In this document: positions 14,810-41,852 of the stretch, in pieces
Position numbering within the stretch: position 1 is the first letter of the stretch
Layout: each line of letters opens with the position of its first letter
Assembly (NCBI GenBank): GCA_963818475.1
Contig: CAWFSF010000006.1
Coordinates: 384,001 to 448,000, forward strand
Reading direction: 5' to 3'
From: Nitrospirota bacterium
GTDB taxonomy: Bacteria > Nitrospirota > UBA9217
Length of the DNA stretch: 64,000 nt
Notes under the pieces: generated by a model
Database searches by the model: none
What the model was told of the DNA's origin: nothing
The model's input: the letters and a program-made list of their open reading frames with translations, nothing else
Made by a program: the position numbers and the translations under genes

Positions 14810-14833
14810 GACATGCGAACAGCTGAATACGCG

Positions 14834-21731: not shown

Positions 21732-21918
21732 TTAGCCACATAAGCCACAAAAGACACAGAAATAATCTTTGTTTTTTCCGCAGCAAGAGAACGCAGAGAG
21801 CACAAAGAAGGGGAAAGCGGTTTGTATTTTCTGAGATCTTTGCGTTCTTTAGCGGCCAACCTGAATGGTTACTGTTTTTAAGGTTTTACTCTGTACTTAT
21901 GTGAATTATGACGGCAAA
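21732..21918. repeat. Nested imperfect inverted repeats (MITE/REP-like) between the permease genes
   Basis: Outer pair gccacataagccacaaaagacacaga / tctgtacttatgtgaattatgacggc. Inner pair aagagaacgcagagagcacaaagaa / ttctgagatctttgcgttcttt. cctgaatggttac at 21860 resembles cctgagtagttac at 23133. Confidence 0.5.
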
Positions 21919-21979
21919 TTTGAGTTCTTGCGAGTTTCTCAAGTTTGAATATTTGACAATTTAGAACTGGAAATTTCTT

Positions 21980-23059
21980 ATGAAAAACTGGTTCCTCTAT
22001 TTTCTAAAAAGATCGGTATCCGAGCGCAAGGGCCGGTTCATTATTGCGGCTTCAGCCGTGATGCTGACCGTTTCCGTCGTAACATCGCTGGCAACGCTCT
22101 CGCTCGGGATCAGGGACAAAATGGGCATTGAGCTCAAGCAGTATGGCGCGAATATGATCATTACCGGCAGCTCCGGAAAAGAGCTCGACCTCACCGTTGC
22201 GAACGGGATCGTGGCCATGAAAGAATATGTCAAAGGCGCGTCCTTCCAGATCTATGGAAGTGCCATGGTGAAGAACGCGGCAGTTGAGGTCATTGGAGCG
22301 GAGCCTGCGAAGATGACGGGCTATCGGCTGTATGGAACGCTACCCCGGGAATCAGACGAGATGATGGTCGGGGTCAATCTCAAGGATGCCTTGAAAATAA
22401 AACAAGGGGATATCCTGCGGTTTGACGGTTCCCCTGTGGAATTCCGGGTGACCGCGTTGTTCGAAAAGGGTTCAGATGAGGACTCCACGCTGGTAATGCC
22501 GATCGAAGGGGCCCGGCAGCTGCTGGGCGTGGCCGGCGTGAGCGCCATCCTTTTGAACGCGGATACGAAGTCGCTGCCAAAAGCTGAGGCGGCGTTCCTC
22601 CTGAGCTATCCGTTCATCGAGGTCAAAACACTCAGGCAGGTCGCCGTTGCAGAAGAACGCATCCTCGGCAGGATCCAGCTGCTCATGCTCCTGGTAACCG
22701 GCGTCGTGCTCTTTTCCTCGATCATCGCCCTGGGAAGCACCATGGGGGCCAATGTGATCGAGCGGAGGGAGGAGATCGGCGTCATGAAATCGCTGGGAGC
22801 AACGCGGAAGCATATCCGGGATTTTTTCATGTCCGAAGCGGCAGGCGCCGGCCTGGTCGGCGCGCTGGCCGGTTATCTCGCCGGCATTGTGTCGGCCGAG
22901 GTCGTATCGAAGACCGCCTTTGGGTCCTTTATCCCGGTGAACCTGCTGGTGGCCCCGCTCGCTGTTCTGCTCGGTGTGTTCATCGCGATCCTTTCAACGT
23001 ACCTGCCTGTTCGCGACGCCATGAAAGTCGTTCCTGCGCAGATCCTGCGCGGGGAGTGA
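21980..23059 (+). CDS. ABC transporter permease, MacB/FtsX type
   Basis: ELKQYGAN and ERREEIGVMKSLGA motifs; C-terminal P..ILRGE. Confidence 0.88.
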   Translation: MKNWFLYFLKRSVSERKGRFIIAASAVMLTVSVVTSLATLSLGIRDKMGIELKQYGANMIITGSSGKELDLTVANGIVAMKEYVKGASFQIYGSAMVKNAAVEVIGAEPAKMTGYRLYGTLPRESDEMMVGVNLKDALKIKQGDILRFDGSPVEFRVTALFEKGSDEDSTLVMPIEGARQLLGVAGVSAILLNADTKSLPKAEAAFLLSYPFIEVKTLRQVAVAEERILGRIQLLMLLVTGVVLFSSIIALGSTMGANVIERREEIGVMKSLGATRKHIRDFFMSEAAGAGLVGALAGYLAGIVSAEVVSKTAFGSFIPVNLLVAPLAVLLGVFIAILSTYLPVRDAMKVVPAQILRGE

Positions 23060-23166
23060 TTGATGCAAAAAGGGTGAATAGGGAGAAGGCTGAAGGTGGA
23101 AGTTGAATATGCGTCAGCTTTCAGCCTGATCTCCTGAGTAGTTACGAAAAAAATGAGGTATGCCCA

Positions 23167-23835
23167 ATGGCGATCATTTCAATAACCGAACTGTCAAAGC
23201 ATTATGATACAACGTCAGCGCTGAAGGGCGTGAACTGCGAGATCGAACAGGGAGAGTGGGTAAGCCTTGTCGGCCCCTCGGGGTCCGGCAAGAGCACGCT
23301 GCTCAATATTGTCGGAGGCCTTGACCAGCCCTCAGAAGGGGGGATCAGCATCAACGGCACCGACATCAATGCGCTGCGCGACGATGAGCTCGCCCGCTTC
23401 CGGCGGGAAACCATCGGATTCGTGTTCCAGCAGTCGCACCTGATCCCCTACCTCGATGCTACGGAAAACGTGATGCTGGCCCAGTATTTTCACAGCATTC
23501 CCGACCGGGCCGAGGCCGAGGACGCGCTCAGGCGCGTAGGGCTCGGGCACCGGCTCGGCCACCGCCCGTCACAGCTCTCCGGCGGAGAGCAGCAACGGGT
23601 CTGTATCGCCCGCGCGCTCATCAACAACCCCTCCTTGCTGCTGGCCGACGAGCCGACGGGCAATCTCGACCGGTCGAACACCAAGAACATCCTCGAACTG
23701 ATGAAGGACCTCCATGCGCAGGAAGGCTTCACGATCGTCGTGGTGACCCATGACCCTTTTGTGTCGCAATGGGCAGGCCGGATACTCTCCATGGAGGACG
23801 GAAGGATAATCAGGGATGAGCCCGTTCATCGGTGA
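23167..23835 (+). CDS. ABC transporter ATP-binding protein (LolD/MacB-like)
   Basis: GPSGSGKST, LSGGEQQR, LLADEPTGNLD and VTHD motifs. Confidence 0.95.
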   Translation: MAIISITELSKHYDTTSALKGVNCEIEQGEWVSLVGPSGSGKSTLLNIVGGLDQPSEGGISINGTDINALRDDELARFRRETIGFVFQQSHLIPYLDATENVMLAQYFHSIPDRAEAEDALRRVGLGHRLGHRPSQLSGGEQQRVCIARALINNPSLLLADEPTGNLDRSNTKNILELMKDLHAQEGFTIVVVTHDPFVSQWAGRILSMEDGRIIRDEPVHR

Positions 23836-25207
23836 CGCCTTCGTCATAGGGGTAAAAGAGGGCATACCGCTCTATCTCAGCGCCGGCCTCGTACTTGCGT
23901 ATGGCAGGAAAGAGCGTCTCGCGTCTCTGACGATGCCTCTGGTTGCGGGCGTGCTTGCTGTTCTGCTGACGTCTTTCGCGGTGTTGAACACCGGCGTTAC
24001 TCCCGAGTTCAGGGATATCATCGTTAAGATGGTCGGCTACGTCTTCGGGCTGTTCTTTCTGTTTTCCCTCGGCGCTTTGTACCATACAACGGGGACCGAT
24101 CTGCTCGGGCCGCTGAAAGCGCTTTCCCAAAAAAGAACGGTTATGGTCCCGGTCATCCTTCTGCTTACCCTGCTGTATTGTGCACCCGATATGGCGGGAT
24201 CGTCCCTGTACGTTGCGGACCTGTACTCCATGGCGGAAGGGAACAAGAGCGTGTTTCTTGCCGCCGCTGGGGGGTTCGGCCTGGCGGTCCTGCTTACCCA
24301 CGTTGTTGCAACGCGGATCAGATTCGACGTGATGCGCTTTTTCGATTTGCCCCAGGTATTATTGTCTCTAGCACTCATGAAACTGATCGCCGGCGGCGTG
24401 CGGGGTTTCGCCGAACTGTCCCTGATCCCGTCAATGCAGTCGGGATTGATGAAGCTCATTCATGATATGGTGCATCAGACCTTCGTGTTCCTTCTGGTCC
24501 CGGATCATCCGCTTCTCTCCACGACGACCTGGAGCTTTATCGGTTTCCTGTTCGGTCCGGCCGTGGGCCTGTGGCTTTCCCTCGGCATCATGCTCCTGCC
24601 GCTCATCATCTTCATAAAAATGCATTTCACCGAAGCGGTTGCTCTCCCTGCGGAGATCAGCGTTCCTGCACGAAAGAGGATCTTCATCAGGGCCGTCCGC
24701 GACCAGCGCATCATGAAATCCATCCCGGTGTTCTTGTTCATGGTATTCATCGTGAGCACGTGGTTCGCGCAAAAGGGAGAGCAGGCCGATCGCTTGTACA
24801 CGCCGCAACCGAGGCCGATCATGGCAGAGAATGGAAAAGTGACCATCCCGCTCCAGTCGACCCTGGATGATCTGCGCGACGGGGCACTGCATAAGTTCTC
24901 AGTAACAGTGGCAGGGGAAGAGGTGCGGCTTTTGATCATGAAAAAACCGGATGGCACGCTCGCGGTCTGTCTCGATGCCTGCGAGATCTGCCAACCTGAA
25001 GGGTATGGCCAGGCCCCGGAACATGTTGTGTGCCTTTATTGCAAGACGCCCATTCTGTTCGCTTCGCTCGGCAAACCGGGCGGATGCAATCCCATCCCCC
25101 TTGCCGCACTGGTCACGGAGAAGGATGTGCAGGTCGATCTTGCAGAGATCTCCGGACAGTGGGCGAAGGTAAAAAGCGGCGATGCGAAAGGAATGGTCAC
25201 GCAATGA
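23816..25207 (+). CDS. Polytopic membrane protein with C-terminal DUF2318 (FtrD-like Fe-S) domain
   Basis: About 8 TM helices followed by CLDACEIC...GY...VVCLYC...GGCNPIPL. Confidence 0.8.
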   Translation: MSPFIGDAFVIGVKEGIPLYLSAGLVLAYGRKERLASLTMPLVAGVLAVLLTSFAVLNTGVTPEFRDIIVKMVGYVFGLFFLFSLGALYHTTGTDLLGPLKALSQKRTVMVPVILLLTLLYCAPDMAGSSLYVADLYSMAEGNKSVFLAAAGGFGLAVLLTHVVATRIRFDVMRFFDLPQVLLSLALMKLIAGGVRGFAELSLIPSMQSGLMKLIHDMVHQTFVFLLVPDHPLLSTTTWSFIGFLFGPAVGLWLSLGIMLLPLIIFIKMHFTEAVALPAEISVPARKRIFIRAVRDQRIMKSIPVFLFMVFIVSTWFAQKGEQADRLYTPQPRPIMAENGKVTIPLQSTLDDLRDGALHKFSVTVAGEEVRLLIMKKPDGTLAVCLDACEICQPEGYGQAPEHVVCLYCKTPILFASLGKPGGCNPIPLAALVTEKDVQVDLAEISGQWAKVKSGDAKGMVTQ

Positions 25208-26220: not shown

Positions 26221-26301
26221 AAATAAGAAGTTGCCCTTAGACATGATTTTTTTGTTTTTTCATGAATTAAATGCTCAGTAGATAGAAAACCAACAGTATT
26301 T

Positions 26302-26417
26302 TGAGCATAATCACTCATAATTTGAGACTTTAGGATGTTTTTTCCGTTATATTTTAAAACCAATATAAATAAGTTATTGATATAAAAGGCCAATGATGTC
26401 GTGGTATGTGTATTGCA
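26302..26417 (+). promoter_or_regulatory. Sigma-54 promoter with upstream palindrome and IHF site
   Basis: TGGTAT-GTGTA-TTGCA at 26402-26417; TGAGCATAATCACTCA at 26302-26317; IHF consensus match (reverse complement TATCAATAACTTA) at 26370-26382. Confidence 0.7.
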
Positions 26418-26505
26418 TATTAACATTGCAACAATCATAAAAGGGCAATAGTTGTATGACGATAAATTGCTCTTTAAGTAGTTGAATTTATTTAGGAGTA
26501 TTGAA

Positions 26506-27261
26506 ATGTCAAGAAAAAGCATGCTGGTTAATCTGATGATAATATGTTTTATGTTTACCTTCTCAGGTATGGCTTCCGGTGGCACTATTGCCGGCAGCAA
26601 GCATGACTTTTCGAAGAACGAATTGCCAATTGTAACCTATTTTGCCGGAAACTTCACGTCCGGAGGTGATGAAATCAGAGAGACGTGCGTGTTCTGCCAC
26701 ACCCCGCATGCTGCTTCGACAGCGGTGACAGGGTTTCTCTGGAACCGGACCGGTTCTTCTGTGGCTAACTATGATATGTACACCAGCACAACGCTTTCCG
26801 TCGTCCCTGACTCGAGGCCGACCGGCTTGACGCTTATGTGCATGAGCTGTCATGACGGCGTAACCTCCATAGCGGTTGGAACGCTTATAAATGCGCCCGG
26901 GGCAGGCCCTGTTGACCTGGTCGCTCCTGGTGCCTATCAGTTTATCGGCGAGATTTACTACCCCAGTCCTTTTTTCGGTGGTGAATGGCAGGCGAATATC
27001 GGCAACCTTACCCCGGATGGCACCTTCGGCACGAGGGCGAACCTTAGTGATGACCACCCGGTATCGTTTACGTGGAATAATAATGTCCCCGGCATTTTCG
27101 ATCCAGGCGAGTGGACGGGAGTTGGTGCGACAGCGCTCAAACTTTTTAATAACAGGATGGAATGCTCCACGTGTCACAATGTGCATGATAACACAAACGC
27201 GCCTTTTTTAAGGATGTCGAATGCTGATAGCGCTATGTGCACAACGTGCCACGACAAGTAA
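26506..27261 (+). CDS. Tetraheme c-type cytochrome, OmcE-like (paralog of 5811)
   Basis: RBS aggag; signal peptide; IAGSKHD...CVFCHTPH...LWNR...CMSCHDG...DDHPVSF...ECSTCHNVHDNTNAPFLR...MCTTCHDK. Confidence 0.88.
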   Translation: MSRKSMLVNLMIICFMFTFSGMASGGTIAGSKHDFSKNELPIVTYFAGNFTSGGDEIRETCVFCHTPHAASTAVTGFLWNRTGSSVANYDMYTSTTLSVVPDSRPTGLTLMCMSCHDGVTSIAVGTLINAPGAGPVDLVAPGAYQFIGEIYYPSPFFGGEWQANIGNLTPDGTFGTRANLSDDHPVSFTWNNNVPGIFDPGEWTGVGATALKLFNNRMECSTCHNVHDNTNAPFLRMSNADSAMCTTCHDK

Positions 27262-27317: not shown

Positions 27318-30056
27318 ATGAACCGGAAAAGATATCTGATGGTCGCAGTTATCCTGGCAGCATTGTTTTTTCTCCTGTCGGGTGCCGGCTATGCAGCCCC
27401 TGCGCTAATCGGTGCTATTACGGATACTGTGTATCGTCCGGCATGCCTCGCCATAGATTCCCAGGGAAACCTCTATGTGTCCGAGACGTCGAACGATATG
27501 TTTAAGGTTTATAATCGAAAAGGCAAGCTGCTTAAACAGTTCTCGGTCCAGCGTCCGATGGGTGTGGCGGTGGACGCCTCCGGATATATCTATATAGGAT
27601 CGGCAACCAGGGGCGCTGTTGATATTTATGCTCCGGATTACAAATATGTACGCAGTCTTGGCGCGGGCCAGGGCGAAATCGTCCGGCCGATGTCCATTGC
27701 CGTTGACGGCGGAAAGGTGTACGTCCTTGACAGCGACACAAGCATGGTCCGTATCTACGATTCGTCAACAGCTCAGTTCCTGTTCAGCTTCGGCGGCAGC
27801 GGCAGCACGGACGGTCTTTTTAACGTGCCAACTGCCGTTGCCGTAAATGACGCTACGAACGAGATCTTTGTTGCCGATCTTCGGAAGACACTGGATAGTA
27901 CCGGCGTACTCATCAATGGCGCAAAAATACAGGTATTTGACAAGGCGGGCGCATTCAAGAGATCTTTTGGTACTTACGGTTTCGAGGCGGGAAAGATCGG
28001 CAAACCGGTAGGCCTGGCTTTGGATGGTTCCGGCAATATTTTTATTTGCGACCTTATTCAGGGCGCGGTCCTTTCCTTTGATGCGGCAACAGGAGCGTTC
28101 AACAATACCGCACTCTATAAAGCTGAAAGCTCGAAGCCCCTGGGCGTAGCAATCGGAAAAAACAAGATCGCTTATGTATCGTTAGCGAACTACCTCAGGA
28201 GTATTGACGTCTACGGTCTTGATGGATTCACGACCATGGATGAGGCGCCGGCCGCCCTGACCTTCGAAAGCAAACAGCTGACCGCGAACGCCGAAGCCCA
28301 GACTGTCACGATCACCAACACGGGAAATGGTTCTTTAGGATGGACCGCAGCGGCTGATAGCAACTGGATAACATTGGGTGCCGCGAGCGGGACCGCAGGC
28401 CCGAACAGCACGAGCAGCCTTGCCATTGGTACGAATAACGCGGACCTGACGGCCGGCACGTACCAGGGCGTGGTAACGGTAACGTCTGATTTCGGCCAGA
28501 TAGACAGGATTCCCGTAACGTTTACGGTAACTCCTGCGGCAACGATCGGCTTCAGCAATGGATCGGTCGCGGTTGCCGCCAAAAAGGGCAAAACGCCCGA
28601 TGCTCAACCAATAACGATCACGGTACAGAATGCAGAATCGCTGCCGTGGTCCGCTTCCTCTGATTCCTCCTGGCTTCTCATTTCCCCGGCCAATGGCACG
28701 GCAACCGCAGCATCAGCTCTCTCTATTAATATGGCGGGTGTCAATCCCGGAACGCATACCGGCCATATCACGCTTTCCGCGCCGACTGCCATAGGAGACG
28801 GCAGCAAGATGACCGTCACCCTCACGGTGACCGCAGGTACGAAGATCAGCGTGGCTTCGAACATTCCGGAGGCCAGGTTTACCGTCGTAAGCACAGCCGC
28901 TACCTATACGGGCTCCGGCGTGGCATGGAGCGTCGAGGACGTTCCGCTGGGAGATTACACTGTTACCTTTGATGCGGTAAGCGGATATCGGAAGCCCCTT
29001 GCCCAAACAAAAAGCCTGACTGATACGGAAATTGCACTGTCGGGAAACTACCGTTCTCATGCCGATATCGCAAGCCGCACGAATATCATTGTCGGCAAAG
29101 GCGCGCATCCGAACAATGACTCCAGGGTCAGGATATACAGGAACGACGGCGCCCCGGCTGCTGATATCATGGCTTTCGGTTTGGACAGCAGATTCGGGAC
29201 CAATGTAACATCAGCTGATATCGACGGAGATGGGATTGCAGAGCTTATCGCGGAAAGCGGCGCTGGTGCGGACAAGCCATCCGTTGTGCGAGTGCTCAAA
29301 TCCGATGGAACAACGCTGGTTGAGCTTGCGCCCTTTACTGCGCCCGGCAGGGCCAATGTGGCCGCAGGTGATCTGAACGGCGATGGCAGGGCGGAGCTCG
29401 TGGTCGCCCCGGCGGATAATGATATGAACGCCTTGGTCAAGGTGTATACCTACAGGGCGGACACGAAGGAGATGGTGGCAACGGGGATCGAGCTTACCGC
29501 TCTTGGATACGATCAGGCGGTAGCGGTTGCCGTTGCGGATACCGACGGCAGTCCTGCGTCGAAGCTCGTTACCGCGTCTCATATGGTTATGAGCGTCTGG
29601 ACGATCGATGCCTCGAAGGGCGTCGGAAGCTGGTCAGCCTCACTCATGAATGATTTTAAAATCCTCGGCAGAGGCAACAAGGTTTCGCTCTCGGCCGGCG
29701 ATATTGATGGTGACGGCAGGGATGAACTTATTGCCGGCGATGGGGCAGGTGTGGCCAATGCCTCATCATCGAATGCGCCATCAGGGGTCATGATCTTCAA
29801 AACCGATGGCGCCATGGCGGGGAATTTTGCTCCCGCCGCTAACTTCCCGAACGGGATGAGCGTGGCGGCAGCCGACCTGACCGGCGATGGTATCGCTGAA
29901 GTGATCGTCGGTTCCGGGGTGGATCAGCGCACTGGAGGACGTAAATCTTCAAGCGTCATGATATTTGACGCGTCAGGAAAGCTTTTGAATACCATAACGC
30001 CCGACGCAAGTTCGCAAAGCGGTCTGAACGTCACGGTTGGAGAGATGGGATTATGA
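27318..30056 (+). CDS. Secreted protein: NHL beta-propeller, 2x BACON-like, PEGA-like, FG-GAP repeats
   Basis: RBS ggagg; signal peptide; NHL repeats; WTAAADSNWIT and WSASSDSSWL; repeated ADIDGDG..ELI / AGDLNGDG. Confidence 0.85.
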   Translation: MNRKRYLMVAVILAALFFLLSGAGYAAPALIGAITDTVYRPACLAIDSQGNLYVSETSNDMFKVYNRKGKLLKQFSVQRPMGVAVDASGYIYIGSATRGAVDIYAPDYKYVRSLGAGQGEIVRPMSIAVDGGKVYVLDSDTSMVRIYDSSTAQFLFSFGGSGSTDGLFNVPTAVAVNDATNEIFVADLRKTLDSTGVLINGAKIQVFDKAGAFKRSFGTYGFEAGKIGKPVGLALDGSGNIFICDLIQGAVLSFDAATGAFNNTALYKAESSKPLGVAIGKNKIAYVSLANYLRSIDVYGLDGFTTMDEAPAALTFESKQLTANAEAQTVTITNTGNGSLGWTAAADSNWITLGAASGTAGPNSTSSLAIGTNNADLTAGTYQGVVTVTSDFGQIDRIPVTFTVTPAATIGFSNGSVAVAAKKGKTPDAQPITITVQNAESLPWSASSDSSWLLISPANGTATAASALSINMAGVNPGTHTGHITLSAPTAIGDGSKMTVTLTVTAGTKISVASNIPEARFTVVSTAATYTGSGVAWSVEDVPLGDYTVTFDAVSGYRKPLAQTKSLTDTEIALSGNYRSHADIASRTNIIVGKGAHPNNDSRVRIYRNDGAPAADIMAFGLDSRFGTNVTSADIDGDGIAELIAESGAGADKPSVVRVLKSDGTTLVELAPFTAPGRANVAAGDLNGDGRAELVVAPADNDMNALVKVYTYRADTKEMVATGIELTALGYDQAVAVAVADTDGSPASKLVTASHMVMSVWTIDASKGVGSWSASLMNDFKILGRGNKVSLSAGDIDGDGRDELIAGDGAGVANASSSNAPSGVMIFKTDGAMAGNFAPAANFPNGMSVAAADLTGDGIAEVIVGSGVDQRTGGRKSSSVMIFDASGKLLNTITPDASSQSGLNVTVGEMGL

Positions 30057-30085: not shown

Positions 30086-33000
30086 ATGAAGAAATCGAAT
30101 TACACACTGATCTCACTCGTACTACTGGTAGGAATGTACTGTGCTGCAAGCGTGTCATACGCGCTCGATGCGCCGCATAACCCCGCTAACACCGCGGTCC
30201 CAGTCGTCTGCAATAAGTGCCACTACCCCGCGGGTCAGGTGCCGGGCTGGGTGACGAGAACTCCTCCGGTAGGCAGCACGTACCTGAACGAGCTCTGCAT
30301 AGTTTGTCATTCTTCAAATAGCGGCTTCGTCGCGAACGCGAAGTCTGAGGACGTCCTCACCCATTCAAGCTATGTGACCCTTCCCACGAATACTAACATC
30401 CCCGTCTATCTCATGGAATGCCGCAACTGCCATAACCCGCATACGCAGGACCAGATGAGGGCAAATCCCTCCCTGGGTGATATTGAGTCAGGTGTTACGT
30501 CCGCCGTATTTGCTTCCTCGCTGACAGACAGCACTAAAAACTGGGTGGTAAACCGGTTTAAGGATGCATTGCTGCTGCCGAATGGGGCTTACGTGTCGAA
30601 TGCATATGTGATCACGGGTAATACCGCGACTACGCTTAACGTCATCGGCCCCATGAACATAAAGTCTCCCTATGCAGGCGCAGGTACAACCTATAAGATC
30701 AAATATGGCAAACTGGTGAAGACGTCTGTCAAATTACCGGCCGGCGGCACAATGCCCGTCACATTCGTGTCCAATACCGGGGCCAATTCCTTTGTAAACA
30801 CGCCGACCGTGAATGGGGTATGTCAGGTATGCCACACCCTTACCAAGGGCTTCAAAAGAGACGGATCCATGAGTTGGTCAGGTCATGCCGGTCAACCAGG
30901 CGCTAATTGCACCGAGTCCTGCCATCTGCACAAGAACGGGTTCAAAGGCCTTCTTGGCCTGGGCGCTGGTTGCAACGCCTGCCACGGCGCTCCGCCAACA
31001 GACTCAACGCTAATCACTGTTGATAAAAATCAGGTGGGCGTCACCTCACAGTCTAACGGCGCCGGCGCTCACGCGATACACACGGCACTTGACCCTGTCA
31101 ACACCTGCGTAAACTGTCATCTCGGCGGCATGGCTCCGCTGCTTGGAGCGACTGAGGCTGGCAACAAAATAACCATGGGCTTTTCCTTGGCGACCGTTAC
31201 TATCCCTGGCACCTATGATGGTGAATCCGGACGGACCACTTTTGATTATGAGCAAAAAGGAACGACTGTTGTTACCAGAAACAATAACTTTACCTGTACG
31301 AACCTGTATTGTCACAGCAATGTGCAGACGGGAACCGGCGGTACTGCCTCTGCTGCTACCTCAACGCCGAGCTGGTACAATACAGCAAGCGGCCAGTGCG
31401 GCACCTGCCACTTGGGAGATGGCGTACAGGGCAACGCGAGCCTGATCAGTACGGGAAGCCATACCAAGCATGTGACCCTGGCAACCTATAACTTTTCCTG
31501 CGGCCAGTGCCATAATAACGCCGGCACCGGGAACGCGAACCACGTTGACAATAATATTCAAGTATCGCTCCTTGGCACCGGCGCTTACAGTCAGGTGCCC
31601 AATACCCCGAAAAACGGCTACGGCAACTGCTCGACGAGCTATTGCCACAGCACCGGCCAGTCTTCGACGGGCGGCTTACCGGCAACCTACGTCACGGCCA
31701 CCTGGGGCACCACGCTGGGCTGCAACGGCTGCCATGTGAACATGAACTCCAGCCCCGTTGCTCCGGGCAGCCACATCAGCCATGTCCAGTCCGCGCCCAA
31801 CTACGCGTGTTCGGTCTGTCACAATGGTTATACTGCGTCTGCGGTCAATCCTTCTACCCACGTAAAAAATGGTTCCATCGATGTCGCGATTACCGGCTAT
31901 GGCGCTGGCGCGTATTACACAGGCGGCACGACCAGCGGCAATCACGCCAGCGGCGGAGGATACGGCACCTGTAACGCATCGATGTGCCACGGCAGCAAGT
32001 CTCCTGCGTGGGGCGCCGGCTATAAAAATTATGATAATTGCACGGTCTGCCACGGCGTTCCGACGACCGGCAACGACGGATCGGTAATTTCGGTCAACCC
32101 TGAAAAAACAGCGCCCGGCGGAACGGGTACGGACACCAACGGCGACACGGCGTCAACAGACCCCCAGGTCGGCATGCACCAGGCCCATCTTACGGCGGCC
32201 AGAAATTACAGCGATCCCATTGCCTGCGGCGAGTGTCATACCGTGCCAACGCCTGCAACGCTTACCACCCATATTAATGACCTGCTTCCCGCCGAAGTGC
32301 CGCTGGCAGGAGGGCTCACGACCACAAATCCCCGCTCACTACCGCAAACGCCGGCGTATTCCGGAGGGCAATGCAACAATACCTATTGCCACGACTACAA
32401 CAGGTTCAAAAACGGTTTTCCTGATGACGCAACCCCTCCGTTTGCAACAAACGCGCCGATATGGAACACGACGCTTCTGAACGGAACGAGCGCCGACTGC
32501 CAGCAGTGCCATGGATATCCTCCGGGGGGCAGTCACCCGCAGCCCGCTACCGATTGCGCCGGTTGCCATCCTGATGTGGCTCCCAATAATATATCCTTCT
32601 CGATCGTTTACCAGCATATAAACGGGTCAATTGAGGGCGGCGGATGCAACGGCTGTCACGGCCAGTCCAATTCGACCGGCGCACCGTACACCTATAACGA
32701 TCGGGTAACCACTAATGGTGGGACGGGCCATATAACAGCTGGCGTTGTGGGAGCGCACCAGAAACACGTGGCAACGCTCTTGTACACAGACTGCAATCTC
32801 TGCCATGCGGGCAACACCATGCCGACCGTCGATAGCAAGATGACCATGAGCTTCAGCGGCATAGCGAGATTCGGCGGAGCTCCCGGCTTGTACATGGGCA
32901 AAACCTTAGCGGGCAGCCCGGCGTATGTCTATGACCCCGGCACGATCTCCACCGCCGGCCCTATGAGCTGTTCCAACATCTACTGCCACAGTGACGGCGG

Positions 33001-36000
33001 CAACTATGCGGGAACGAAAGTTTACAGCTCCGTAACCTGGACTGGCGCAGCTCTCACCTGCGATAAGTGCCATGGAAACGGTGCAGGCACGCTCGTGACC
33101 ACGAATGTCCACCCGAAACATGTCACGAGCTACTCCCTGGGCTGCCAGGAGTGCCATTACAACACGACGACGGACGGCGCCACGATCACGACCCCGGCAA
33201 ACCACGTCAATACCGTGAAAAACGTGGACTGGAAAGTTGGCGGACTTAATGCCGGCGGAAGCGCTTATGCGCGGCCGAACTGTTCCACCATATACTGCCA
33301 CAGCCAGGGTATCAGCACCACGGCTCCTTACGGAGGTGCGGCGAACACGACAGCGGCCTGGAATGGAACAGCGTTGACCTGCGAAGGCTGCCACAGCTAC
33401 GATGCAGCGGCAACGAACAAGATGGCCACGGGCAAGCACACCCAGCACATCAACCAGAGCGCCGTGCTCGGTACCAACTACGGCTGTCAGGAATGCCATA
33501 ACACCACCACGACGAACGGCACGACGATCACGACGATAGCTAACCATGTCAACGGGACGCGGAACGTTTCGATGGTCAGAGGCGGCACCTGGACGTCGCC
33601 GAACTGCACGGCCACCTATTGCCACAGCACGGGCCAGGCCACACCGACTTCGGTGAATCCCGGTACCTGGACTGCAGGCGCAGCGCTGACCTGCGATAGC
33701 TGCCACGGCACGGAAGGCGGAACGGCCTTTGGCGAGCCTGCTTATACCAACGGAGTTCAGCCGGCCGTGGCCGAGAACAATGACAACAGCCATGCCGCGC
33801 ACGTGACTGCGGCAGCGGACTGCGTGAATTGCCATACGGACACGGTAAGCGCGACCGGCACGGCGATCAAGGCCGCATCGATACTGCATACGAACCAGGC
33901 GCGGAACGTAAACTTCGCCGCATCCCTGGACACCAACGGCGGAACGAACTCGGACAACTACAATGCCGGTGCCAAGACCTGCTCGTCAATTGTCTGTCAT
34001 GGAGCAGGAACCCCGATGTGGGGCGGCGCGACCCTTGCCTGCGATCAGTGCCATCTGGCGAACAACACCCTGGCCGGCAAGCACGCCAGGCATTACGGCG
34101 TGGCAACAGTAGCCGTGACCGCGGACAAGACACCGTCAAACACCTCGTCCGCAACGGTCTATGAATACAGCTGCGGCGTCTGCCACAACGCGACGCCCCA
34201 TGCCACCGGCAACGCAAGTGCGAACCAGGCGGCCAATGTGGTGTTTGACTCAACCATAGCAGGAGGAGGCACCTATACCGCCGGCGGCGCTCTTGCGGGC
34301 ACTGATACGGGCGGCATGGAGTGGACGAACGGCACCTGCGGGACCACGTACTGCCACAGCCAGGGTGCAAGCACCACGTCTCCGTTCGGCGGAGCGCCGA
34401 ACAGCACGGCCACCTGGAATGGTGGGGCCATGAACTGCGAAAGCTGCCACAACTTCAATGCGGCGGCAACGAACAAGATGGCCACGGGCAAGCACACCGC
34501 GCATATCAACGACGGAACAATCATGCCGAATGTGGCCTGCAGCGCCTGCCACACGTCGACGACGAGCGACAGCACCACGATCACTACTGAATCGAACCAT
34601 GTGAACAAGCTGAGGGATGTAACCATAGCAGCCACCTACGACAGCGACGCGACGCCGGGGAACAACTGGGCGACCAGCACCTGCTCCAATGTCTACTGCC
34701 ACAGCACGGGCGAAGCAACGCCGACGTATAAGCCGGTTCTCTGGACGGCCACGATAACGAACTGCGAAGCCTGCCACAACTACGATGCGGCCGCAACGAA
34801 CAAGATGGCCACGGGCAAACACTCCCAGCACATCAACCAGAGCGCCGTGCTCGGTACCAACTACGGCTGCCAGGAATGCCATAACACCACCACGACGAAC
34901 GGCACGACGATCACGACCCCGGCAAGCCACGTTGATAAAGTACGTGACGTGTCCATGCTCAGGGGCGGCACCTGGACGTCGCCGAACTGCACGGCCACCT
35001 ATTGCCACAGCACGGGCCAGGCCACACCGACTTCGGTGAATCCCGGTACCTGGACTGCAGGCGCAGCGCTGACCTGCGATAGCTGCCACGGCACGGAAGG
35101 CGGAACGGCCTTTGGCGAGCCTGCTTATACCAACGGAGTTCAGCCGGCCGTGGCCGAGAACAATGACAACAGCCATGCCGCGCACGTGACTGCGGCAGCG
35201 GACTGCGTGAATTGCCATACGGACACGGTAAGCGCGACCGGCACGGCGATCAAGGCCGCATCGATACTGCATACGAACCAGGCGCGGAACGTAAACTTCG
35301 CCGCATCCCTGGACACCAACGGCGGAACGAACTCGGACAACTACAATGCCGGTGCCAAGACCTGCTCGTCAATTGTCTGTCATGGAGCAGGAACCCCGAT
35401 GTGGGGCGGCGCGACCCTTGCCTGCGATCAGTGCCATCTGGCGAACAACACCCTGGCCGGCAAGCACGCCAGGCATTACGGCGTGGCAACAGTAGCCGTG
35501 ACCGCGGACAAGACACCGTCAAACACCTCGTCCGCAACGGTCTATGAATACAGCTGCGGCGTCTGCCACAACGCGACGCCCCATGCCACCGGCAACGCAA
35601 GTGCGAACCAGGCGGCCAATGTGGTGTTTGACTCAACCATAGCAGGAGGAGGCACCTATACCGCCGGCGGCGCTCTTGCGGGCACTGATACGGGCGGCAT
35701 GGAGTGGACGAACGGCACCTGCGGGACCACGTACTGCCACAGCCAGGGTGCAAGCACCACGTCTCCGTTCGGCGGAGCGCCGAACAGCACGGCCACCTGG
35801 AACGGTGGGGCCATGAACTGCGAAAGCTGCCACAACTTCAATGCGGCGGCAACGAACAAGATGGCCACGGGCAAGCACACCCAGCACATCAACCAGAGCG
35901 CCGTACTCGGTACGAACTACGGCTGCCAGGAATGTCATAACACGACCACGACCGACGGCACGACTATCACGAATGAGGCAAATCACGTCAACAAGACGCG

Positions 36001-38422
36001 TGACGTATCAATGCTCAGGGGCGGCACCTGGACTTCGCCGAACTGCACGGCCACCTATTGCCACAGCACGGGCCAGGCCACACCGACCTCTGTGAACCCG
36101 GGCACCTGGACTGCCGGCGCGGCAATGACCTGCGACAGCTGCCACGGAACGGAAGGCGGAACGGCCTTTGGCGAGCCCGCGTACACCAACGGAGTTCAGC
36201 CGGCCGTGGCCGAGAACAATGACAACAGCCATGCCGCGCACGTGACCGCGGCAATAGATTGCGTGAACTGTCATACGGACACGGTAAGCGCGACCGGTAC
36301 GGCGATAAAGGCCGCATCGATACTGCATACGAACCAGGCGCGGAACGTAAACTTCGCCGCGACCTTGGACAATAACGGCGGCACAAACTCCGACAACTAC
36401 AATGCTGGTGCCAAGACCTGCTCGTCAATTGTCTGCCATGGAGCGGGAACACCCATGTGGGGAGGTGCCTCTCTCAAATGTTCGGATTGCCACAGCGGAG
36501 CGTCCGATGTGGTTGATTACACAAGCAATGGTACCATCGCAACGATCAACAACACGCAGTGGGGCTACTCCGGCCACGGCAAGCCATCGTCAACCTATGA
36601 TATAACGGGCAATACGGCGGCCAACTTCCCTGGCGCGGTCACCACGGGAGATCCTTGCCAGTATTGCCATGACAGCACTGTTGCGCACAATGACGCGAAC
36701 AACCCGCTCAGACTGCGGAACTTCGCCGACGGGACATACGGCAAAAACGGCGTGTGCATGAAGTGTCACGGAACGGGCCAGACGGGCGTGAACCCGGGCA
36801 CGGGCTACTCACTTAAGACCGCCACCAAGAAGGTCGACAAGTACCACTATGCCGCCAAACACGGCGGGAGCTACACAGGCGGTCAGTACTGCTGGGATTG
36901 CCACGACGGCCACGGCGATTCGACCACCACTGCCGGACCCATCGCCATGATCCAGTTGAACCCGGCCAGCGCGTCCAACAGCACGACGGCGATACCCACG
37001 ACCATCGTGTCGACAGCGGTCACGATGACCGGCCGTACTCTTCCATCGAACTACGGCAAGACCGTTACTCCCTTTAACGGCATATGCAACGTCTGCCATA
37101 CCGCGGGGGCGAACGGTCTCAGCAGCCATTACACGTCAACGACGTCGGACGGACACAACTCGACCACGCTCTGCACCGATTGCCATAAGCACAGTGTAAA
37201 TACGACCTATGAAAACAAGGCATGGGAAGGCGCGGGCGGCGATTGTCTCGGGTGCCACAACTCGGCGCAGAGCGATGGCGCCAACACGGACATCGACAAC
37301 AACGGCGTGCGGGTGGTGGCGTCGGAGTTCACCAAACAGTCGCACCATGTAACCGGCAAGACCTTGTCCAAATTCGACTGCGCGGTCTGCCACGGAGAGG
37401 GCGATTATCTGACCGGCAGCACCACGGCGCTGCATAAGAACGGCCAGATCGATCTGCGAAACGCGGACAACGCGAGCGCCTACTATACCTGGACCGGGTC
37501 CGAGCATACGAACATGGATAACTTCTGCATGAGTTGCCATGATGCGAACGGAGCTTCGGTAACCTATTCACGTGATCCGCTGGCGACAAGTCCGAGCAGG
37601 ACGAACCCTTTCGGTGACACGCGTCAGAACTCCTATGACCAGGTTGTGCGCACGGTCGTGGTCGACGTTTTCACGGCATTCAACCCCGGCACAGGCGGCT
37701 CGGGCACCGGCTACAACGGGAATTACTCGCAGCATGCGGTCCGCGGGGCCCGGTATTCCAATGATGCCGATGCCGGCAGCATGTATACGAACGGCCGGTT
37801 TGATGCCGCCTATACGCCGCTCGGTGGAAGTGTGTCCGTACGTGATTCCTCGACGCTCCACTGCGGCGATTGCCATACGAACGGCCAGTATAGTACGGCA
37901 ACCGCGCCGGTGATCGGCGCTCATGGATCGAACAACGAGTACCTGCTCAGGACAATCAACAGCAGTGACGCGGAGCATACCAAGACGACCTACGGCTGCT
38001 TCAAGTGCCACCTCCTGGCCAGATATAGCGCCACGCACTCTAATGGAAACGCATCTGACTTCGTCGATTCGTCTACGTTGACCGGCATTGCCGGCCGCGC
38101 CGCGAGCAACGCGAACATTACCGGCATTTCCTGCACGAACTGTCATAACTCCGGAGATGCGAAGTTTGGCGGGGTGCACGGTGGCAACGCCACGTACACG
38201 GACAATCAAGGCTATACGGCGAAGACCTACCGGTTCATGCCGGGTTTGGGCAACAACAAGTACTCACCGACGCAGAGCGGGTCAAGCGCGGAAGCAGACT
38301 GGGAACAGCCCACTGCTTACGGATGCTACACTACGCCGACCGCAAATTGGGGAAGCTGCACCAAGCATAGCGGCGGAGCCAAGACGGTGACAAGAGGCCA
38401 ATCACGGAAACTCAGGTACTAA
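30086..38422 (+). CDS. Giant multiheme c-type cytochrome, Geobacter CxxxxCH/CxxCH repeat type (about 64 heme motifs)
   Basis: Signal peptide. Manual count gives 48 CXXCH, 15 CX4CH and 1 CX3CH. An alternative start at 30053 overlaps the upstream stop. Confidence 0.92.
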   Translation: MKKSNYTLISLVLLVGMYCAASVSYALDAPHNPANTAVPVVCNKCHYPAGQVPGWVTRTPPVGSTYLNELCIVCHSSNSGFVANAKSEDVLTHSSYVTLPTNTNIPVYLMECRNCHNPHTQDQMRANPSLGDIESGVTSAVFASSLTDSTKNWVVNRFKDALLLPNGAYVSNAYVITGNTATTLNVIGPMNIKSPYAGAGTTYKIKYGKLVKTSVKLPAGGTMPVTFVSNTGANSFVNTPTVNGVCQVCHTLTKGFKRDGSMSWSGHAGQPGANCTESCHLHKNGFKGLLGLGAGCNACHGAPPTDSTLITVDKNQVGVTSQSNGAGAHAIHTALDPVNTCVNCHLGGMAPLLGATEAGNKITMGFSLATVTIPGTYDGESGRTTFDYEQKGTTVVTRNNNFTCTNLYCHSNVQTGTGGTASAATSTPSWYNTASGQCGTCHLGDGVQGNASLISTGSHTKHVTLATYNFSCGQCHNNAGTGNANHVDNNIQVSLLGTGAYSQVPNTPKNGYGNCSTSYCHSTGQSSTGGLPATYVTATWGTTLGCNGCHVNMNSSPVAPGSHISHVQSAPNYACSVCHNGYTASAVNPSTHVKNGSIDVAITGYGAGAYYTGGTTSGNHASGGGYGTCNASMCHGSKSPAWGAGYKNYDNCTVCHGVPTTGNDGSVISVNPEKTAPGGTGTDTNGDTASTDPQVGMHQAHLTAARNYSDPIACGECHTVPTPATLTTHINDLLPAEVPLAGGLTTTNPRSLPQTPAYSGGQCNNTYCHDYNRFKNGFPDDATPPFATNAPIWNTTLLNGTSADCQQCHGYPPGGSHPQPATDCAGCHPDVAPNNISFSIVYQHINGSIEGGGCNGCHGQSNSTGAPYTYNDRVTTNGGTGHITAGVVGAHQKHVATLLYTDCNLCHAGNTMPTVDSKMTMSFSGIARFGGAPGLYMGKTLAGSPAYVYDPGTISTAGPMSCSNIYCHSDGGNYAGTKVYSSVTWTGAALTCDKCHGNGAGTLVTTNVHPKHVTSYSLGCQECHYNTTTDGATITTPANHVNTVKNVDWKVGGLNAGGSAYARPNCSTIYCHSQGISTTAPYGGAANTTAAWNGTALTCEGCHSYDAAATNKMATGKHTQHINQSAVLGTNYGCQECHNTTTTNGTTITTIANHVNGTRNVSMVRGGTWTSPNCTATYCHSTGQATPTSVNPGTWTAGAALTCDSCHGTEGGTAFGEPAYTNGVQPAVAENNDNSHAAHVTAAADCVNCHTDTVSATGTAIKAASILHTNQARNVNFAASLDTNGGTNSDNYNAGAKTCSSIVCHGAGTPMWGGATLACDQCHLANNTLAGKHARHYGVATVAVTADKTPSNTSSATVYEYSCGVCHNATPHATGNASANQAANVVFDSTIAGGGTYTAGGALAGTDTGGMEWTNGTCGTTYCHSQGASTTSPFGGAPNSTATWNGGAMNCESCHNFNAAATNKMATGKHTAHINDGTIMPNVACSACHTSTTSDSTTITTESNHVNKLRDVTIAATYDSDATPGNNWATSTCSNVYCHSTGEATPTYKPVLWTATITNCEACHNYDAAATNKMATGKHSQHINQSAVLGTNYGCQECHNTTTTNGTTITTPASHVDKVRDVSMLRGGTWTSPNCTATYCHSTGQATPTSVNPGTWTAGAALTCDSCHGTEGGTAFGEPAYTNGVQPAVAENNDNSHAAHVTAAADCVNCHTDTVSATGTAIKAASILHTNQARNVNFAASLDTNGGTNSDNYNAGAKTCSSIVCHGAGTPMWGGATLACDQCHLANNTLAGKHARHYGVATVAVTADKTPSNTSSATVYEYSCGVCHNATPHATGNASANQAANVVFDSTIAGGGTYTAGGALAGTDTGGMEWTNGTCGTTYCHSQGASTTSPFGGAPNSTATWNGGAMNCESCHNFNAAATNKMATGKHTQHINQSAVLGTNYGCQECHNTTTTDGTTITNEANHVNKTRDVSMLRGGTWTSPNCTATYCHSTGQATPTSVNPGTWTAGAAMTCDSCHGTEGGTAFGEPAYTNGVQPAVAENNDNSHAAHVTAAIDCVNCHTDTVSATGTAIKAASILHTNQARNVNFAATLDNNGGTNSDNYNAGAKTCSSIVCHGAGTPMWGGASLKCSDCHSGASDVVDYTSNGTIATINNTQWGYSGHGKPSSTYDITGNTAANFPGAVTTGDPCQYCHDSTVAHNDANNPLRLRNFADGTYGKNGVCMKCHGTGQTGVNPGTGYSLKTATKKVDKYHYAAKHGGSYTGGQYCWDCHDGHGDSTTTAGPIAMIQLNPASASNSTTAIPTTIVSTAVTMTGRTLPSNYGKTVTPFNGICNVCHTAGANGLSSHYTSTTSDGHNSTTLCTDCHKHSVNTTYENKAWEGAGGDCLGCHNSAQSDGANTDIDNNGVRVVASEFTKQSHHVTGKTLSKFDCAVCHGEGDYLTGSTTALHKNGQIDLRNADNASAYYTWTGSEHTNMDNFCMSCHDANGASVTYSRDPLATSPSRTNPFGDTRQNSYDQVVRTVVVDVFTAFNPGTGGSGTGYNGNYSQHAVRGARYSNDADAGSMYTNGRFDAAYTPLGGSVSVRDSSTLHCGDCHTNGQYSTATAPVIGAHGSNNEYLLRTINSSDAEHTKTTYGCFKCHLLARYSATHSNGNASDFVDSSTLTGIAGRAASNANITGISCTNCHNSGDAKFGGVHGGNATYTDNQGYTAKTYRFMPGLGNNKYSPTQSGSSAEADWEQPTAYGCYTTPTANWGSCTKHSGGAKTVTRGQSRKLRY
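33581..36465 (+). repeat. Intragenic duplication: about 0.9-kb near-identical block at 1383-bp offset plus a third partial copy
   Basis: ggcggcacctggac..cgccgaactgc starts at 33581, 34964 and 36020. Identical shadow ORFs at 33829 and 35212 confirm the offset. Confidence 0.92.
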
Positions 38423-38439: not shown

Positions 38440-38474
38440 GGCGGGAAGTTCGAAAGAACTTCCCGCCTTTTTTA
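38440..38474 (+). terminator. Rho-independent terminator
   Basis: ggcgggaagttc-GAAA-gaacttcccgcc followed by a T tract. Confidence 0.88.
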
Positions 38475-38851
38475 TTGTCAGCGGGACGTTCTATTCAGGA
38501 GGGGTGTATCATGGTTTCGGCACTAACGCGCCTCATCCCGATAACGATTGTTGACAGGAATATCCGCAGAGAAGGGATGGGGGCTTCACCTTATCCGACA
38601 TGGGTTTAACTGAAAAGTTTTAAAGATGAAGACCATCAAAGGGTGCGGAAGAAGCCGGTTCCGCGATCAATGCCAGATTCAGGAAAAAGAATTATGCGCA
38701 TCAATAGGGATAGAGGTCTGGCAGGCGGCGTTCGGACTGGCGGGGAAAGGTAGAGACAGCATGTCGCTGGTTTCATCGCTCTTTCAGCGCCGCTGTTGTG
38801 TGTGAGATCTATCTTGTGGTTCTTTTACCAGGTACTCTGCTTTGTGCCGGG

Positions 38852-40652: not shown

Positions 40653-41852
40653 ATGACTTTCATTGGCTTCCTCAAGAGACTTTTCCATGCGCCTTGGATC
40701 GTTCTCGCCTTTCTGGTCCTTCCCGGCATACTGATTACCCAGCGCATGCTGCATCTCCCCCTTATCGATCCGCGCTTCGTCATGTACGATGTCATTCTGT
40801 TCGTTGTCTATCTGCTTGCGGTGCTCGGCATGCGGATCAGTCGTCTGCGCCGGCGGATCAGGCTGGGAGACACAAAACCCTTTTTCTTAAAGAGAGTCGA
40901 CACCATGGGCAGCCCTGCAGTGATCCGAAAAGCCCTGGAGGCGGACGGATATTTTTTTACCGATCAAGGTAATTATGCCGAAAAGCGGGACCGGGGGTAT
41001 GGGGGCGGCATTCTGTTCCTTGTCGGTTTCGTCATACTGCTCACGGTGGGGTCCTACGATAACCTGCGGAACCTTTCCGGAACGGTTCTCCTGGCGGTTG
41101 GGCAGCCGATCAAGCTTTTTGACCGGGTGTCGTACACAGAGATCGGCGCTGGACCGTGGGCAGACCTCGAAAAGTTTCCTTATCAGCTCCAGGTCAGCAA
41201 TCAGATCCATCCCACGACGCAGGCTCCGAAAGGCGCGGCGGAGATTAACCTGCTCGGGCGCGACGGGGCGCTGATCCGGCAGGCGGCGATTAATCCTGAA
41301 ACACCACTTTCCATCGACGATTTTCGCATCCACATGGCGGGCTTCGTGTATGATGCGTGGGTAGTCATTGTCACGTCGAAGGACCACACCATATTTACCG
41401 ACTGGGTCAAACTGAAGCTCGATAAAAAAAGAGAGGGCGCCTACCTGTATTCCGGGGCTTTTCGCGATGATTTCGCGAAGGTGGAGGGCCGTGCCCGGTA
41501 CGCCCCTGAAACCGAACGGCTTAAAATCGAGGCTGCGCTGGATGGGAAAAAAATCGTCGATGCGGTCCTCGCCTACCGGCATGAGGAAGGCGGGTATATT
41601 ACGACCATGCCGGGGATCGGCAAGTGGTGTGAATTTCGCGTGGTGCGGAAACGCCACCTTTTTATTCTGGCCGCGGGGGCGATCATGACCGTCCTGGGAG
41701 GCGCGCTGCGTCTGTGGTTCAGGCCGAAGCGGGTCTGGATCGAGGAACGAGCGGGAATCAGCCGAATCGCAACAACAGATACGGACGTGAAAAAACTGTT
41801 TTTCCCTAAAGTGTTCCCTGATCAGGAAAGACGACCTAAAATAGAAAGTTGA
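40653..41852 (+). CDS. ResB-like membrane protein (divergent)
   Basis: YAEK...GGILFLVGFVILL.VG parallels YAVK...ATILFHLSFLLILAGG of the ResB at 55835. C-terminal TM followed by PKRVWI. Confidence 0.65.
   Translation: MTFIGFLKRLFHAPWIVLAFLVLPGILITQRMLHLPLIDPRFVMYDVILFVVYLLAVLGMRISRLRRRIRLGDTKPFFLKRVDTMGSPAVIRKALEADGYFFTDQGNYAEKRDRGYGGGILFLVGFVILLTVGSYDNLRNLSGTVLLAVGQPIKLFDRVSYTEIGAGPWADLEKFPYQLQVSNQIHPTTQAPKGAAEINLLGRDGALIRQAAINPETPLSIDDFRIHMAGFVYDAWVVIVTSKDHTIFTDWVKLKLDKKREGAYLYSGAFRDDFAKVEGRARYAPETERLKIEAALDGKKIVDAVLAYRHEEGGYITTMPGIGKWCEFRVVRKRHLFILAAGAIMTVLGGALRLWFRPKRVWIEERAGISRIATTDTDVKKLFFPKVFPDQERRPKIES

Follow-up and report, generated by a model that had tools for sequence, protein, structure and literature searches.

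What would a bacterium do with a single protein chain that carries 64 heme-binding motifs? The question is raised by a gene on the + strand of a 64,000-nucleotide stretch of a Nitrospirota genome (lineage UBA9217; GenBank assembly GCA_963818475.1, contig CAWFSF010000006.1, positions 384,001 to 448,000), which we call the window. The gene lies at 30086..38422 of the window, and we refer to its product as the giant cytochrome. A first inspection of the letters alone (the sequence-only reading) had described about 64 hemes in a periodic arrangement and suggested a monomeric molecular wire outside the cell.

Here we take this proposal apart module by module and set the gene among its neighbors and relatives. 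The reading that we favor, with a probability of roughly 0.6, is that the giant cytochrome is a Sec-exported 64-heme chain serving extracellular electron transfer at or beyond the outer membrane. The protein belongs, by profile match, to a known family. Its predicted operon, which ties it to a subunit of the OmcE nanowire type, is new.

Modules of the giant cytochrome

The + strand is open from 30053 to 38422 (2789 codons), and amino acid positions given here count from the opening of this frame. The start codon is the ATG at 30086, where the sequence-only reading had also placed it. AGGAG lies 8 nucleotides upstream, the N-termini of relatives align at the same MKK and the database copy of the same protein has 2778 amino acids; these three points argue that this ATG is the real start.

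Regular expressions run on the translation find 48 CXXCH, one CX3CH and 15 CX4CH motifs, in exact agreement with the earlier count by hand, and no CXXCK, CX5CH, CX11CH or CX15CH. Against these 64 motifs, 1000 trials with shuffled residues give a mean of 0.88 and a maximum of 6. The motifs account for 128 of the 131 cysteines and leave out C2758, C2769 and, within the signal peptide, C30. There are 136 histidines, 64 inside the motifs and 72 elsewhere, so that the latter would suffice for bis-His ligation of every heme. The mature chain has 2752 amino acids and a pI of 6.5; its mass would be about 283 kDa before heme attachment and about 323 kDa once all 64 hemes are in place. It is rich in small and polar residues (T 14.1, G 11.6, A 11.0, N 8.7 and S 8.1%; T, N, G and S together 42.6%), and 10.2% of its residues are charged. 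Hematite-type [ST]P[ST] motifs are in weak excess (11 versus 5.7 ± 2.3 in shuffles); N-x-S/T sequons are not enriched (58 versus 51.8 ± 6.1).

The chain is predicted to run from a signal peptide through a seven-heme N-terminal cap (N-cap) and 15 c7-like three-heme units with 46 hemes to an 11-heme C-terminal part:

30086..38422, + strand: giant multiheme cytochrome gene, by heme-motif regular expressions and TIGR01904
30086..30163, + strand: signal peptide of 26 amino acids, MKKSNYTLISLVLLVGMYCAASVSYA, the only hydrophobic segment of the protein
30164..31294, + strand: N-cap, 7 hemes (6 CXXCH and the CX3CH), amino acids 38-414, conserved in relatives
31295..36655, + strand: array of 15 three-heme units, 46 hemes (15 CX4CH and 31 CXXCH), by TIGR01904 and unit alignment
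36656..37369, + strand: C-terminal module C1, 6 CXXCH, amino acids 2202-2439
37370..38419, + strand: C-terminal module C2, 5 CXXCH and two free cysteines, ending SRKLRY, amino acids 2440-2789

The cysteine of the signal peptide is preceded by Y, so there is no lipobox. The mature chain begins L-D-A-P-H, and nearly all relatives have A-[LIV]-D-x-P-H directly after the signal peptide. Apart from this Sec-type signal peptide, no sorting signal of a known type is seen in the giant cytochrome. The N-cap contains a conserved heme-free insert of about 110 amino acids, which finds only chance-level matches in the protein atlas (scores below 0.9). The cap itself is kept at the N-terminus of 84 of the 119 listed long relatives (alignments A1 and A2).

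Between amino acids 415 and 2201 the order CX4CH-CXXCH-CXXCH recurs 15 times, the exceptions being unit 4, with four CXXCH, and the short last unit 15, with one. Each CX4CH is followed 20-42 residues on by a CXXCH, and cysteines and histidines are intact in every unit. Twelve units have exactly three non-motif histidines, a conserved HxxH and one later His; four units have no Met at all. No CX4CH occurs among the 7 motifs of the N-terminal part, one of which is the CX3CH, or among the 11 of the C-terminal part. The unit alignment thus upholds two claims of the sequence-only reading, the three-heme periodicity and the H..H pattern of distal ligands. The central repeat region that it described also exists, at a length of about 1790 amino acids rather than about 1900.

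The C-terminal part joins two modules of different distribution. When amino acids 2143-2789 are used as a query, the first 260-300 or so, comprising most of C1, are common to 9 loci and many long relatives. The same query matches PF22113, the family of domains II and IV of MtrC and MtrF, at E 2.1e-16 (60.4 bits; cut-off 30), and the best stretch, amino acids 2371-2499, straddles the border between C1 and C2. By itself C2 scores 36.3 bits with PF22113 and matches PF09699 weakly; PF22113 is found in five of the nine members of alignment A4. There are 288 relatives of C2 among 1.84 billion representatives (E ≤ 1e-3). Among the best 149 of them, 138 end in R-x-x-x-Y and 105 in RP[LVI]xY; the background rate of a C-terminal Y is 37 in 859 locus frames. 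In the window (38405..38419) and in the 149 relatives this ending is preceded by CYT...WG.C..H with two non-heme cysteines. It could be a recognition signal; no sorting signal of this kind is known to us to have been described, though no literature search was aimed at the motif. Short matches to C2 have no signal peptide and resemble contig-edge fragments, and we do not take them as evidence of a free-standing form. In the protein atlas the C-terminal 290 amino acids share 188 features with small Paired_CXXCH proteins (score 0.94), a lead only, given the low recognition (1668).

To which family does the protein belong? The sequence-only reading had proposed a scan with the CxxxxCH/CxxCH repeat profile. 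This profile, TIGR01904 (NCBIfam 'CxxxxCH/CxxCH domain c-type cytochrome'), matches at E 6.5e-99 (323.8 bits; cut-off 27) in 15 stretches that are all the units. The whole protein also matches PF09698 in 11 stretches (116.5 bits; cut-off 21.7), PF14522 (cytochrome c7; 204.4 bits) and PF14537. When the array is cut into 15 single CXXCH-CX4CH-CXXCH segments, PF09698 is found in 14 at E ≤ 0.01 and exceeds its cut-off in 11, and PF14522 is found in 13 at E ≤ 0.01 over nearly the whole of its 67 positions. The CXXXXCH spacing occurs twice in tetraheme cytochrome c3, according to the available part of the source, which lends indirect support to heme binding at the CX4CH sites here; every one of these retains its two Cys and its His, in a unit with a spare His to match.

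Long relatives number at least 504, with 1533-4881 amino acids (word-index search, E ≤ 0.001), and many of these, found in Geobacter, Geotalea, Anaeromyxobacter and Nitrospirae, already bear the name 'CxxxxCH/CxxCH domain' protein. Fifteen of the 119 listed relatives bear 64 to 94 motifs, the highest count being 94 in 3889 amino acids. In print, the accessible text of Soares et al. (2024) gives up to 87 motifs in Desulfuromonadia, cites a record of 113 and models long members as wires; that of a 2026 preprint on peat gives up to 116. The family is curated and has larger known members, so this is not a new kind of protein, and the novelty implied by the sequence-only reading falls away: by its profile matches the giant cytochrome is a large new member of a known cytochrome family, of unexceptional size. 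A protein of Geotalea daltonii FRC-32 named 'cytochrome c, 53 heme-binding sites' (P0103, 2427 amino acids) has the same repeated TIGR01904/PF09698 domain. TIGR01904 relatives in general share the mix of PF09698, PF14522, PF14537 and PF22113, and many have the N-cap and C-terminal modules too. What sets the giant cytochrome apart is its distance (the closest protein other than itself shares just 43% identity, over 45% of the length), its host (Nitrospirota, not Desulfuromonadia) and its operon with an OmcE-like gene, which was not found for known members of the family in the searches made.

No experimental name or solved structure occurs among the TIGR01904-type relatives found, and the Geobacter sulfurreducens member AAR36274.2 is plain 'cytochrome c'. 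A direct sequence search of the PDB with the whole protein gives no match; the C-terminal 647 amino acids give only a chance-level one (E 5.9), and a C2 profile gives no match below E 0.014. A profile of the N-terminal 770 amino acids does find a best match, in four stretches, to GSU1996 of G. sulfurreducens (3OV0; E 2.4e-10), and a weak one to MtrF (3PMQ; E 2.2e-4). GSU1996 is described, in the available text, as 12 linearly arranged hemes in four c7-type domains, 12 nm long, with one His-Met heme per domain. It too is a single chain of tandem three-heme domains, to which the c7-like units of the giant cytochrome would correspond. It differs in having 12 hemes instead of 64 and in using CXXCH throughout, where the giant cytochrome has CX4CH as its middle motif. 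The largest solved multiheme chain named in the part of the literature available has 16 hemes. The C-terminal part shares the PF22113 multiheme domain with the decahemes MtrC, MtrF and OmcA; the full four-domain MtrC architecture is not found, and Pfam scans give no sequence match to MtrC-type domains I and III.

How did the chain become so long? A repeat search and blastn reveal an internal duplication within the array:

33376..34510, + strand: copy 1 (4 units, 12 hemes per 461-amino-acid period), 97.2% identical to copy 2
34759..35893, + strand: copy 2
35815..36462, + strand: third, older partial copy, 88-90% identical

Copies 1 and 2 are 1135 nucleotides each, lie 1383 nucleotides apart and are 97.2% identical over 1137 aligned nucleotides. 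Their 34 differences, which make 14 synonymous and 12 non-synonymous codon changes, all fall near the ends of the copies and leave an identical middle of 839 nucleotides. Tandem Repeats Finder gives no match, the period being greater than 500. Near-identical copies with a four-unit period point to recent lengthening of the giant cytochrome by unequal recombination, that is, by tandem duplication of units. On the - strand, frames of up to 340 amino acids run inside the gene (for example 32906..33889 and 34250..35272) and overlap the duplicated region; they are putative by-products of a skewed codon composition (AT skew up to 0.33).

The three-gene operon and its relatives

The giant cytochrome gene is the last of three that are predicted to be co-transcribed:

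26221..26505, + strand: AT-rich intergenic region, likely promoter region (promoter-like match at 26283..26311, a consensus match only)
26506..27261, + strand: gene 1, OmcE-like tetraheme cytochrome (OmcE2), 4 CXXCH; ATG at 26506 with AGGAG 8 nucleotides upstream
27318..30056, + strand: gene 2, protein with NHL, two BACON and FG-GAP domains (P2; Pfam NHL, BACON_2, FG-GAP, FG-GAP_3)
38440..38477, + strand: strong intrinsic terminator, 18 nucleotides past the stop codon; a 12-bp stem, in which 8 pairs are GC, and then TTTTTTATTG

Genes 1 and 2 are 56 nucleotides apart, 29 nucleotides separate gene 2 from the giant cytochrome gene, and each of the three has its own Shine-Dalgarno sequence. No Rfam family occurs anywhere in the window, so there is no riboswitch leader. 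OmcE2 matches the OmcE filament chain 7TFS_A at E 3.7e-22 over amino acids 21-259 (phmmer). P2 is a secreted protein of 912 amino acids, with GGAGG ahead of its ATG at 27318; it matches NHL propellers in the PDB at E 1e-24 to 6e-26, and its N-terminus, MNRKRYLMVAVILAALFFLLSGAGYA, has no lipobox cysteine.

Is this arrangement kept elsewhere? A scan of species-representative genomes with the N-cap alignment yields at least 557 related stretches, of which 78 loci were kept; none is identical to the window, whose genome is therefore absent from the species representatives, and the best are Nitrospirota metagenome-assembled genomes. At least 3 kb of upstream sequence is available for 68 N-cap genes, and 28 of these have an NHL-type gene directly upstream. 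Where there is room for a second gene (27 loci), an OmcE-like gene precedes the NHL gene in 15, so that the triad occurs in 15 Nitrospirota loci. In the N-cap tree they are confined to one half, which has 26 rows and is weakly supported (76); the remaining 44 rows contain no triad. We found no paper describing an operon of OmcE-like, NHL-BACON-FG-GAP and N-cap cytochrome genes, in a search that left out most subscription journals, and the operon context that links the giant cytochrome to an OmcE-type subunit is new.

In the N-cap tree the window clusters at full support with the loci L001, L002 and L021. Compared with these three, the NHL protein is 72-81% identical, the OmcE-like protein 50-63% and the N-cap 50-52%; the aspartate aminotransferase of the window (13386..14579) is 96% identical to that of the L001 genome. 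A value of 96% is also found against the aminotransferase of 'Nitrospirae bacterium GWC2_56_14'. That the cytochromes diverge faster than the aminotransferase fits the fast evolution of outer-surface cytochromes reported in the available literature. Related open reading frames (ORFs) have 6 to 50 hemes, and these counts are lower bounds (L001 ends at a contig edge and L002 is frame-switched). In L006, L018 and L021 more heme-rich frames lie directly behind the relative of the giant cytochrome.

A sister group of 23 rows (support 99; among others L025, L043, L051, L052, L057, L063 and L071) has the same N-cap and only 11-17 heme motifs. Its proteins, of 1000-3300 amino acids, are long and mostly heme-free, with a cytochrome head.

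Other genes of the window

A second OmcE-type module lies 20 kb upstream of the operon, and maturation genes lie downstream of it:

5811..11220, + strand: second OmcE-type module (OmcE-like protein, NHL lipoprotein, peptidyl-prolyl isomerase, barrel candidate)
5811..6479, + strand: OmcE-like tetraheme cytochrome (OmcE1), E 2.3e-34 to 9YUQ_N and 7.8e-28 to 7TFS_A
6827..8002, + strand: NHL lipoprotein (Pfam NHL), lipobox LLAGC
7999..9045, + strand: SurA-like peptidyl-prolyl isomerase (Pfam Rotamase)
9293..9940 and 9979..11220, + strand: probable outer-membrane barrel in two ORFs, weak Omp85 match (E 1.1e-3)
54978..57237, + strand: System II maturation genes, a CcsB-type heme lyase subunit, then a ResB-like gene (TIGR03144, PF01578, PF05140)

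In L037, L040, L056 and L074 the second module stands directly upstream of the triad. The first barrel frame has a signal peptide and the second ends ...LSRPF, with a C-terminal F; an AT-rich tract that encodes about 17 consecutive Asn marks the split, which may reflect a frameshift, a sequencing error or two genes.

Eight His and eight Cys are invariant among the OmcE-like relatives (alignment A3, n = 21). Two paralogue types can be told apart in this alignment, which holds both window copies, those of L037, L040, L056 and L074 and those of 11 other loci. The type adjoining the giant cytochrome has LWN[RK] in 16 of 16 members and exactly eight His in 11 of 16. The type adjoining the NHL lipoprotein and the isomerase has LWNH and at least nine His in five of five. 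A 2026 paper in mBio proposes that the anchor of the OmcE filament has nine His and four hemes.

The match to TIGR03144 (E 1e-55) scores 189.2 bits against a cut-off of 187.6. The window holds one CcsB-type lyase subunit and two ResB-like genes in all (40653..41852, 54978..55838 and 56086..57237), one of the ResB-like genes being a weak match only; conceivably they are paralogues that serve the maturation of unusual motifs, CX4CH among them. It also encodes GT2 and PMT-type glycosyltransferases and tetratricopeptide repeat (TPR) proteins.

This gene content resembles two described systems. As in the OmcE clusters of G. sulfurreducens (7TFS) and D. soudanensis (9YUQ), OmcE homologues are followed by NHL propeller genes, here twice, and the isomerase, barrel candidate, System II, GT2/PMT and TPR genes also fit the available description of those clusters. 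That description names 'two multiheme cytochromes' for the minimal cluster and has, in the text available, no mention of a 64-heme TIGR01904 protein as a third gene; its propeller is a small lipoprotein, whereas the triad has a 912-amino-acid NHL/BACON/FG-GAP protein. The two window propellers differ in the same respect, P2 having no lipobox and the propeller at 6827..8002 having one. The second system is the Uet cluster of Tenderiales and Gallionella (tetraheme UetA, isomerase UetB, barrel UetC, NHL proteins UetH and UetI, undecaheme UetJ). Likened by its available description, it shares with the window a tetraheme cytochrome, an isomerase, NHL propellers, a large multiheme cytochrome and CcsA/CcsB, the large cytochrome having 11 hemes in Uet and 64 here.

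Three further + strand loci deserve mention. At 1535..5275, just upstream of the first OmcE module, is a gene for a secreted protein of 1246 amino acids with a Sortilin/BNR-type propeller, four CARDB domains and a BACON domain; its composition is like that of the giant cytochrome (10.3% charged). At 20403..25207, directly upstream of the operon, are genes for a LolCDE/MacB-like ABC transporter (two FtsX permeases and an ATPase) and an FtrD-like membrane protein, which are absent from the corresponding place in L001. At 46504..48915 is an 803-amino-acid fusion in which a multi-pass membrane N-terminus and TPR are followed by a multiheme C-terminal domain; this domain (8 CXXCH and 1 CX4CH) resembles NrfH and c3, an odd pairing with the membrane/TPR part.

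Across the window, the low content of charged residues in the giant cytochrome is akin to that of OmcE1, OmcE2 and the CARDB/BACON protein; cytoplasmic proteins have 21-24% and the isomerase 32.9%.

Possible roles: wire, store or filament partner

How might such a chain work? On the reading that we favor, System II lyase would load all 48 CXXCH, the CX3CH and the 15 CX4CH covalently with heme. Almost all hemes would be bis-His ligated, and together they would form one continuous chain of linear shape. A single-chain heme wire is plausible and, by analogy, the best-supported reading, given the c7-like units, the profile match to the linear GSU1996 and the published models of long relatives. Among these, the accessible text of Soares et al. 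(2024) has a 27-heme cytochrome, predicted to be extracellular, modelled as a wire of 350 Å, as compared with 170 Å for the periplasm. Scaling from 12 hemes in 12 nm and from 27 hemes in 35 nm gives about 64-83 nm for 64 hemes. Set against a periplasm of 17 nm, this length suggests that the giant cytochrome would transfer or store electrons over a distance larger than the width of the periplasm, the direction of flow being one that we infer.

The most likely location is the cell surface rather than the periplasm. This is suggested by the partners in the operon (an OmcE-type filament subunit and a BACON/FG-GAP/NHL protein), by the MtrC/MtrF-type domain and by a composition like that of surface proteins. 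We also count for this reading the System II, glycosyltransferase and TPR genes of the window, which accompany OmcE clusters as well.

Several observations pull the other way. GSU1996, which by profile is the nearest relative with a solved structure, is described in the available text as a periplasmic protein and as a capacitor. The operon encodes no secretion system or porin, and the only barrel candidate in the window lies 20 kb off and is split over two ORFs. The NHL/OmcE synteny is lacking in 40 of the 68 relatives with enough upstream sequence. The curated cut-off of PF14522 (24.8 bits) is exceeded by only 4 of the 15 single segments. Finally, with 839 bases repeated exactly, the count of 64 hemes depends on the assembly of the repeat; the gene of the closest genome, L001, breaks off inside at a contig end; and the L002 orthologue (13600..16350) switches frame about ten times in 2.7 kb while keeping its heme motifs, 74 when summed over three frames. 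These switches could be indel errors in the repeat region or the mark of a decaying gene.

The rival that survives best, though we consider it unlikely, is a periplasmic electron store: the protein would lie along the membrane and buffer electrons in the absence of an acceptor, a role that has been suggested for GSU1996 and for the 27-heme GSU2210. The likeness to GSU1996 speaks for it, as does a signal for Sec alone with no known sorting signal, and of the two reasons that Soares et al. (2024) offer for the existence of very long cytochromes, one is electron storage. The operon partners, however, come from an extracellular filament family and surface-type domain families, and the C-terminal part has its MtrC/MtrF-type domain. 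The composition matches the surface proteins of the window and not the periplasmic isomerase. Nor do the array units have the His-Met heme of the GSU1996 domains: 12 of 15 have three spare His, and some have no Met.

A broader proposal, which we hold to be rather unlikely, is that the giant cytochrome, the OmcE-like tetraheme and the NHL/BACON/FG-GAP protein work together as one machine in these Nitrospirota. The 64-heme chain would be a stalk that crosses the envelope and extends tens of nanometers. A cap with an OmcE-like two-heme element would dock onto the tetraheme filament and feed or nucleate it. The length of the stalk would be tuned quickly by gain and loss of three-heme units (8 to 50 motifs in related ORFs, 64 here, about 74 in L002), and R-x-x-x-Y would be a so far undescribed signal for recognition or attachment of such cytochromes.

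Quite improbable, in our view, is the narrower alternative that the giant cytochrome is a dedicated partner of an OmcE filament, serving as its base, anchor or feeder and docking the tetraheme polymer through a cap. The anchor and tip of OmcE filaments are unknown (mBio 2026), and the order of OmcE-like, NHL and N-cap cytochrome genes is kept in 15 loci. In hhalign, moreover, the OmcE family matches the first two hemes of the N-cap (probability 94.2%, E 1.2e-7) and the first two of C2 (95.7%, E 1e-8), when the N-cap and C2 match each other at only 48%. These alignments are short, however (48 columns in the N-cap and 71 in C2), and dominated by heme motifs; BLASTP of the C-terminal 410 amino acids against both OmcE-like proteins finds heme-motif matches only (E ≥ 0.02), and no OmcE-like gene stands beside 12 of the 27 relatives with room for one.

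That near-identical repeats led the assembly to overstate the length, or that the gene is a pseudogene in the making, as the 839 bases recurring 1383 nucleotides apart and the broken genes of L001 and L002 might suggest, is highly improbable given an ORF intact over 8.3 kb, Cys and His retained in 15 of 15 units, a contig of 2.35 Mb, copy flanks whose 34 differences are those expected of a real duplication and a comparable size in L002, with its 74 motifs over the same span.

What, then, does the reading of an exported 64-heme chain for extracellular electron transfer mean for the family? Very long single-chain cytochromes are known from sequence only, and the window leaves their known existence and size range unchanged. 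Its near-identical internal repeats show how such cytochromes lengthen and why assemblies often break them. What the window adds is an intact, clean example whose clear three-gene operon links it to the OmcE nanowire family, and this in Nitrospirota, a phylum in which extracellular electron transfer has received little study. Should that link prove functional, it would be relevant to a question put in the 2026 mBio paper: what anchors, feeds or caps OmcE filaments.

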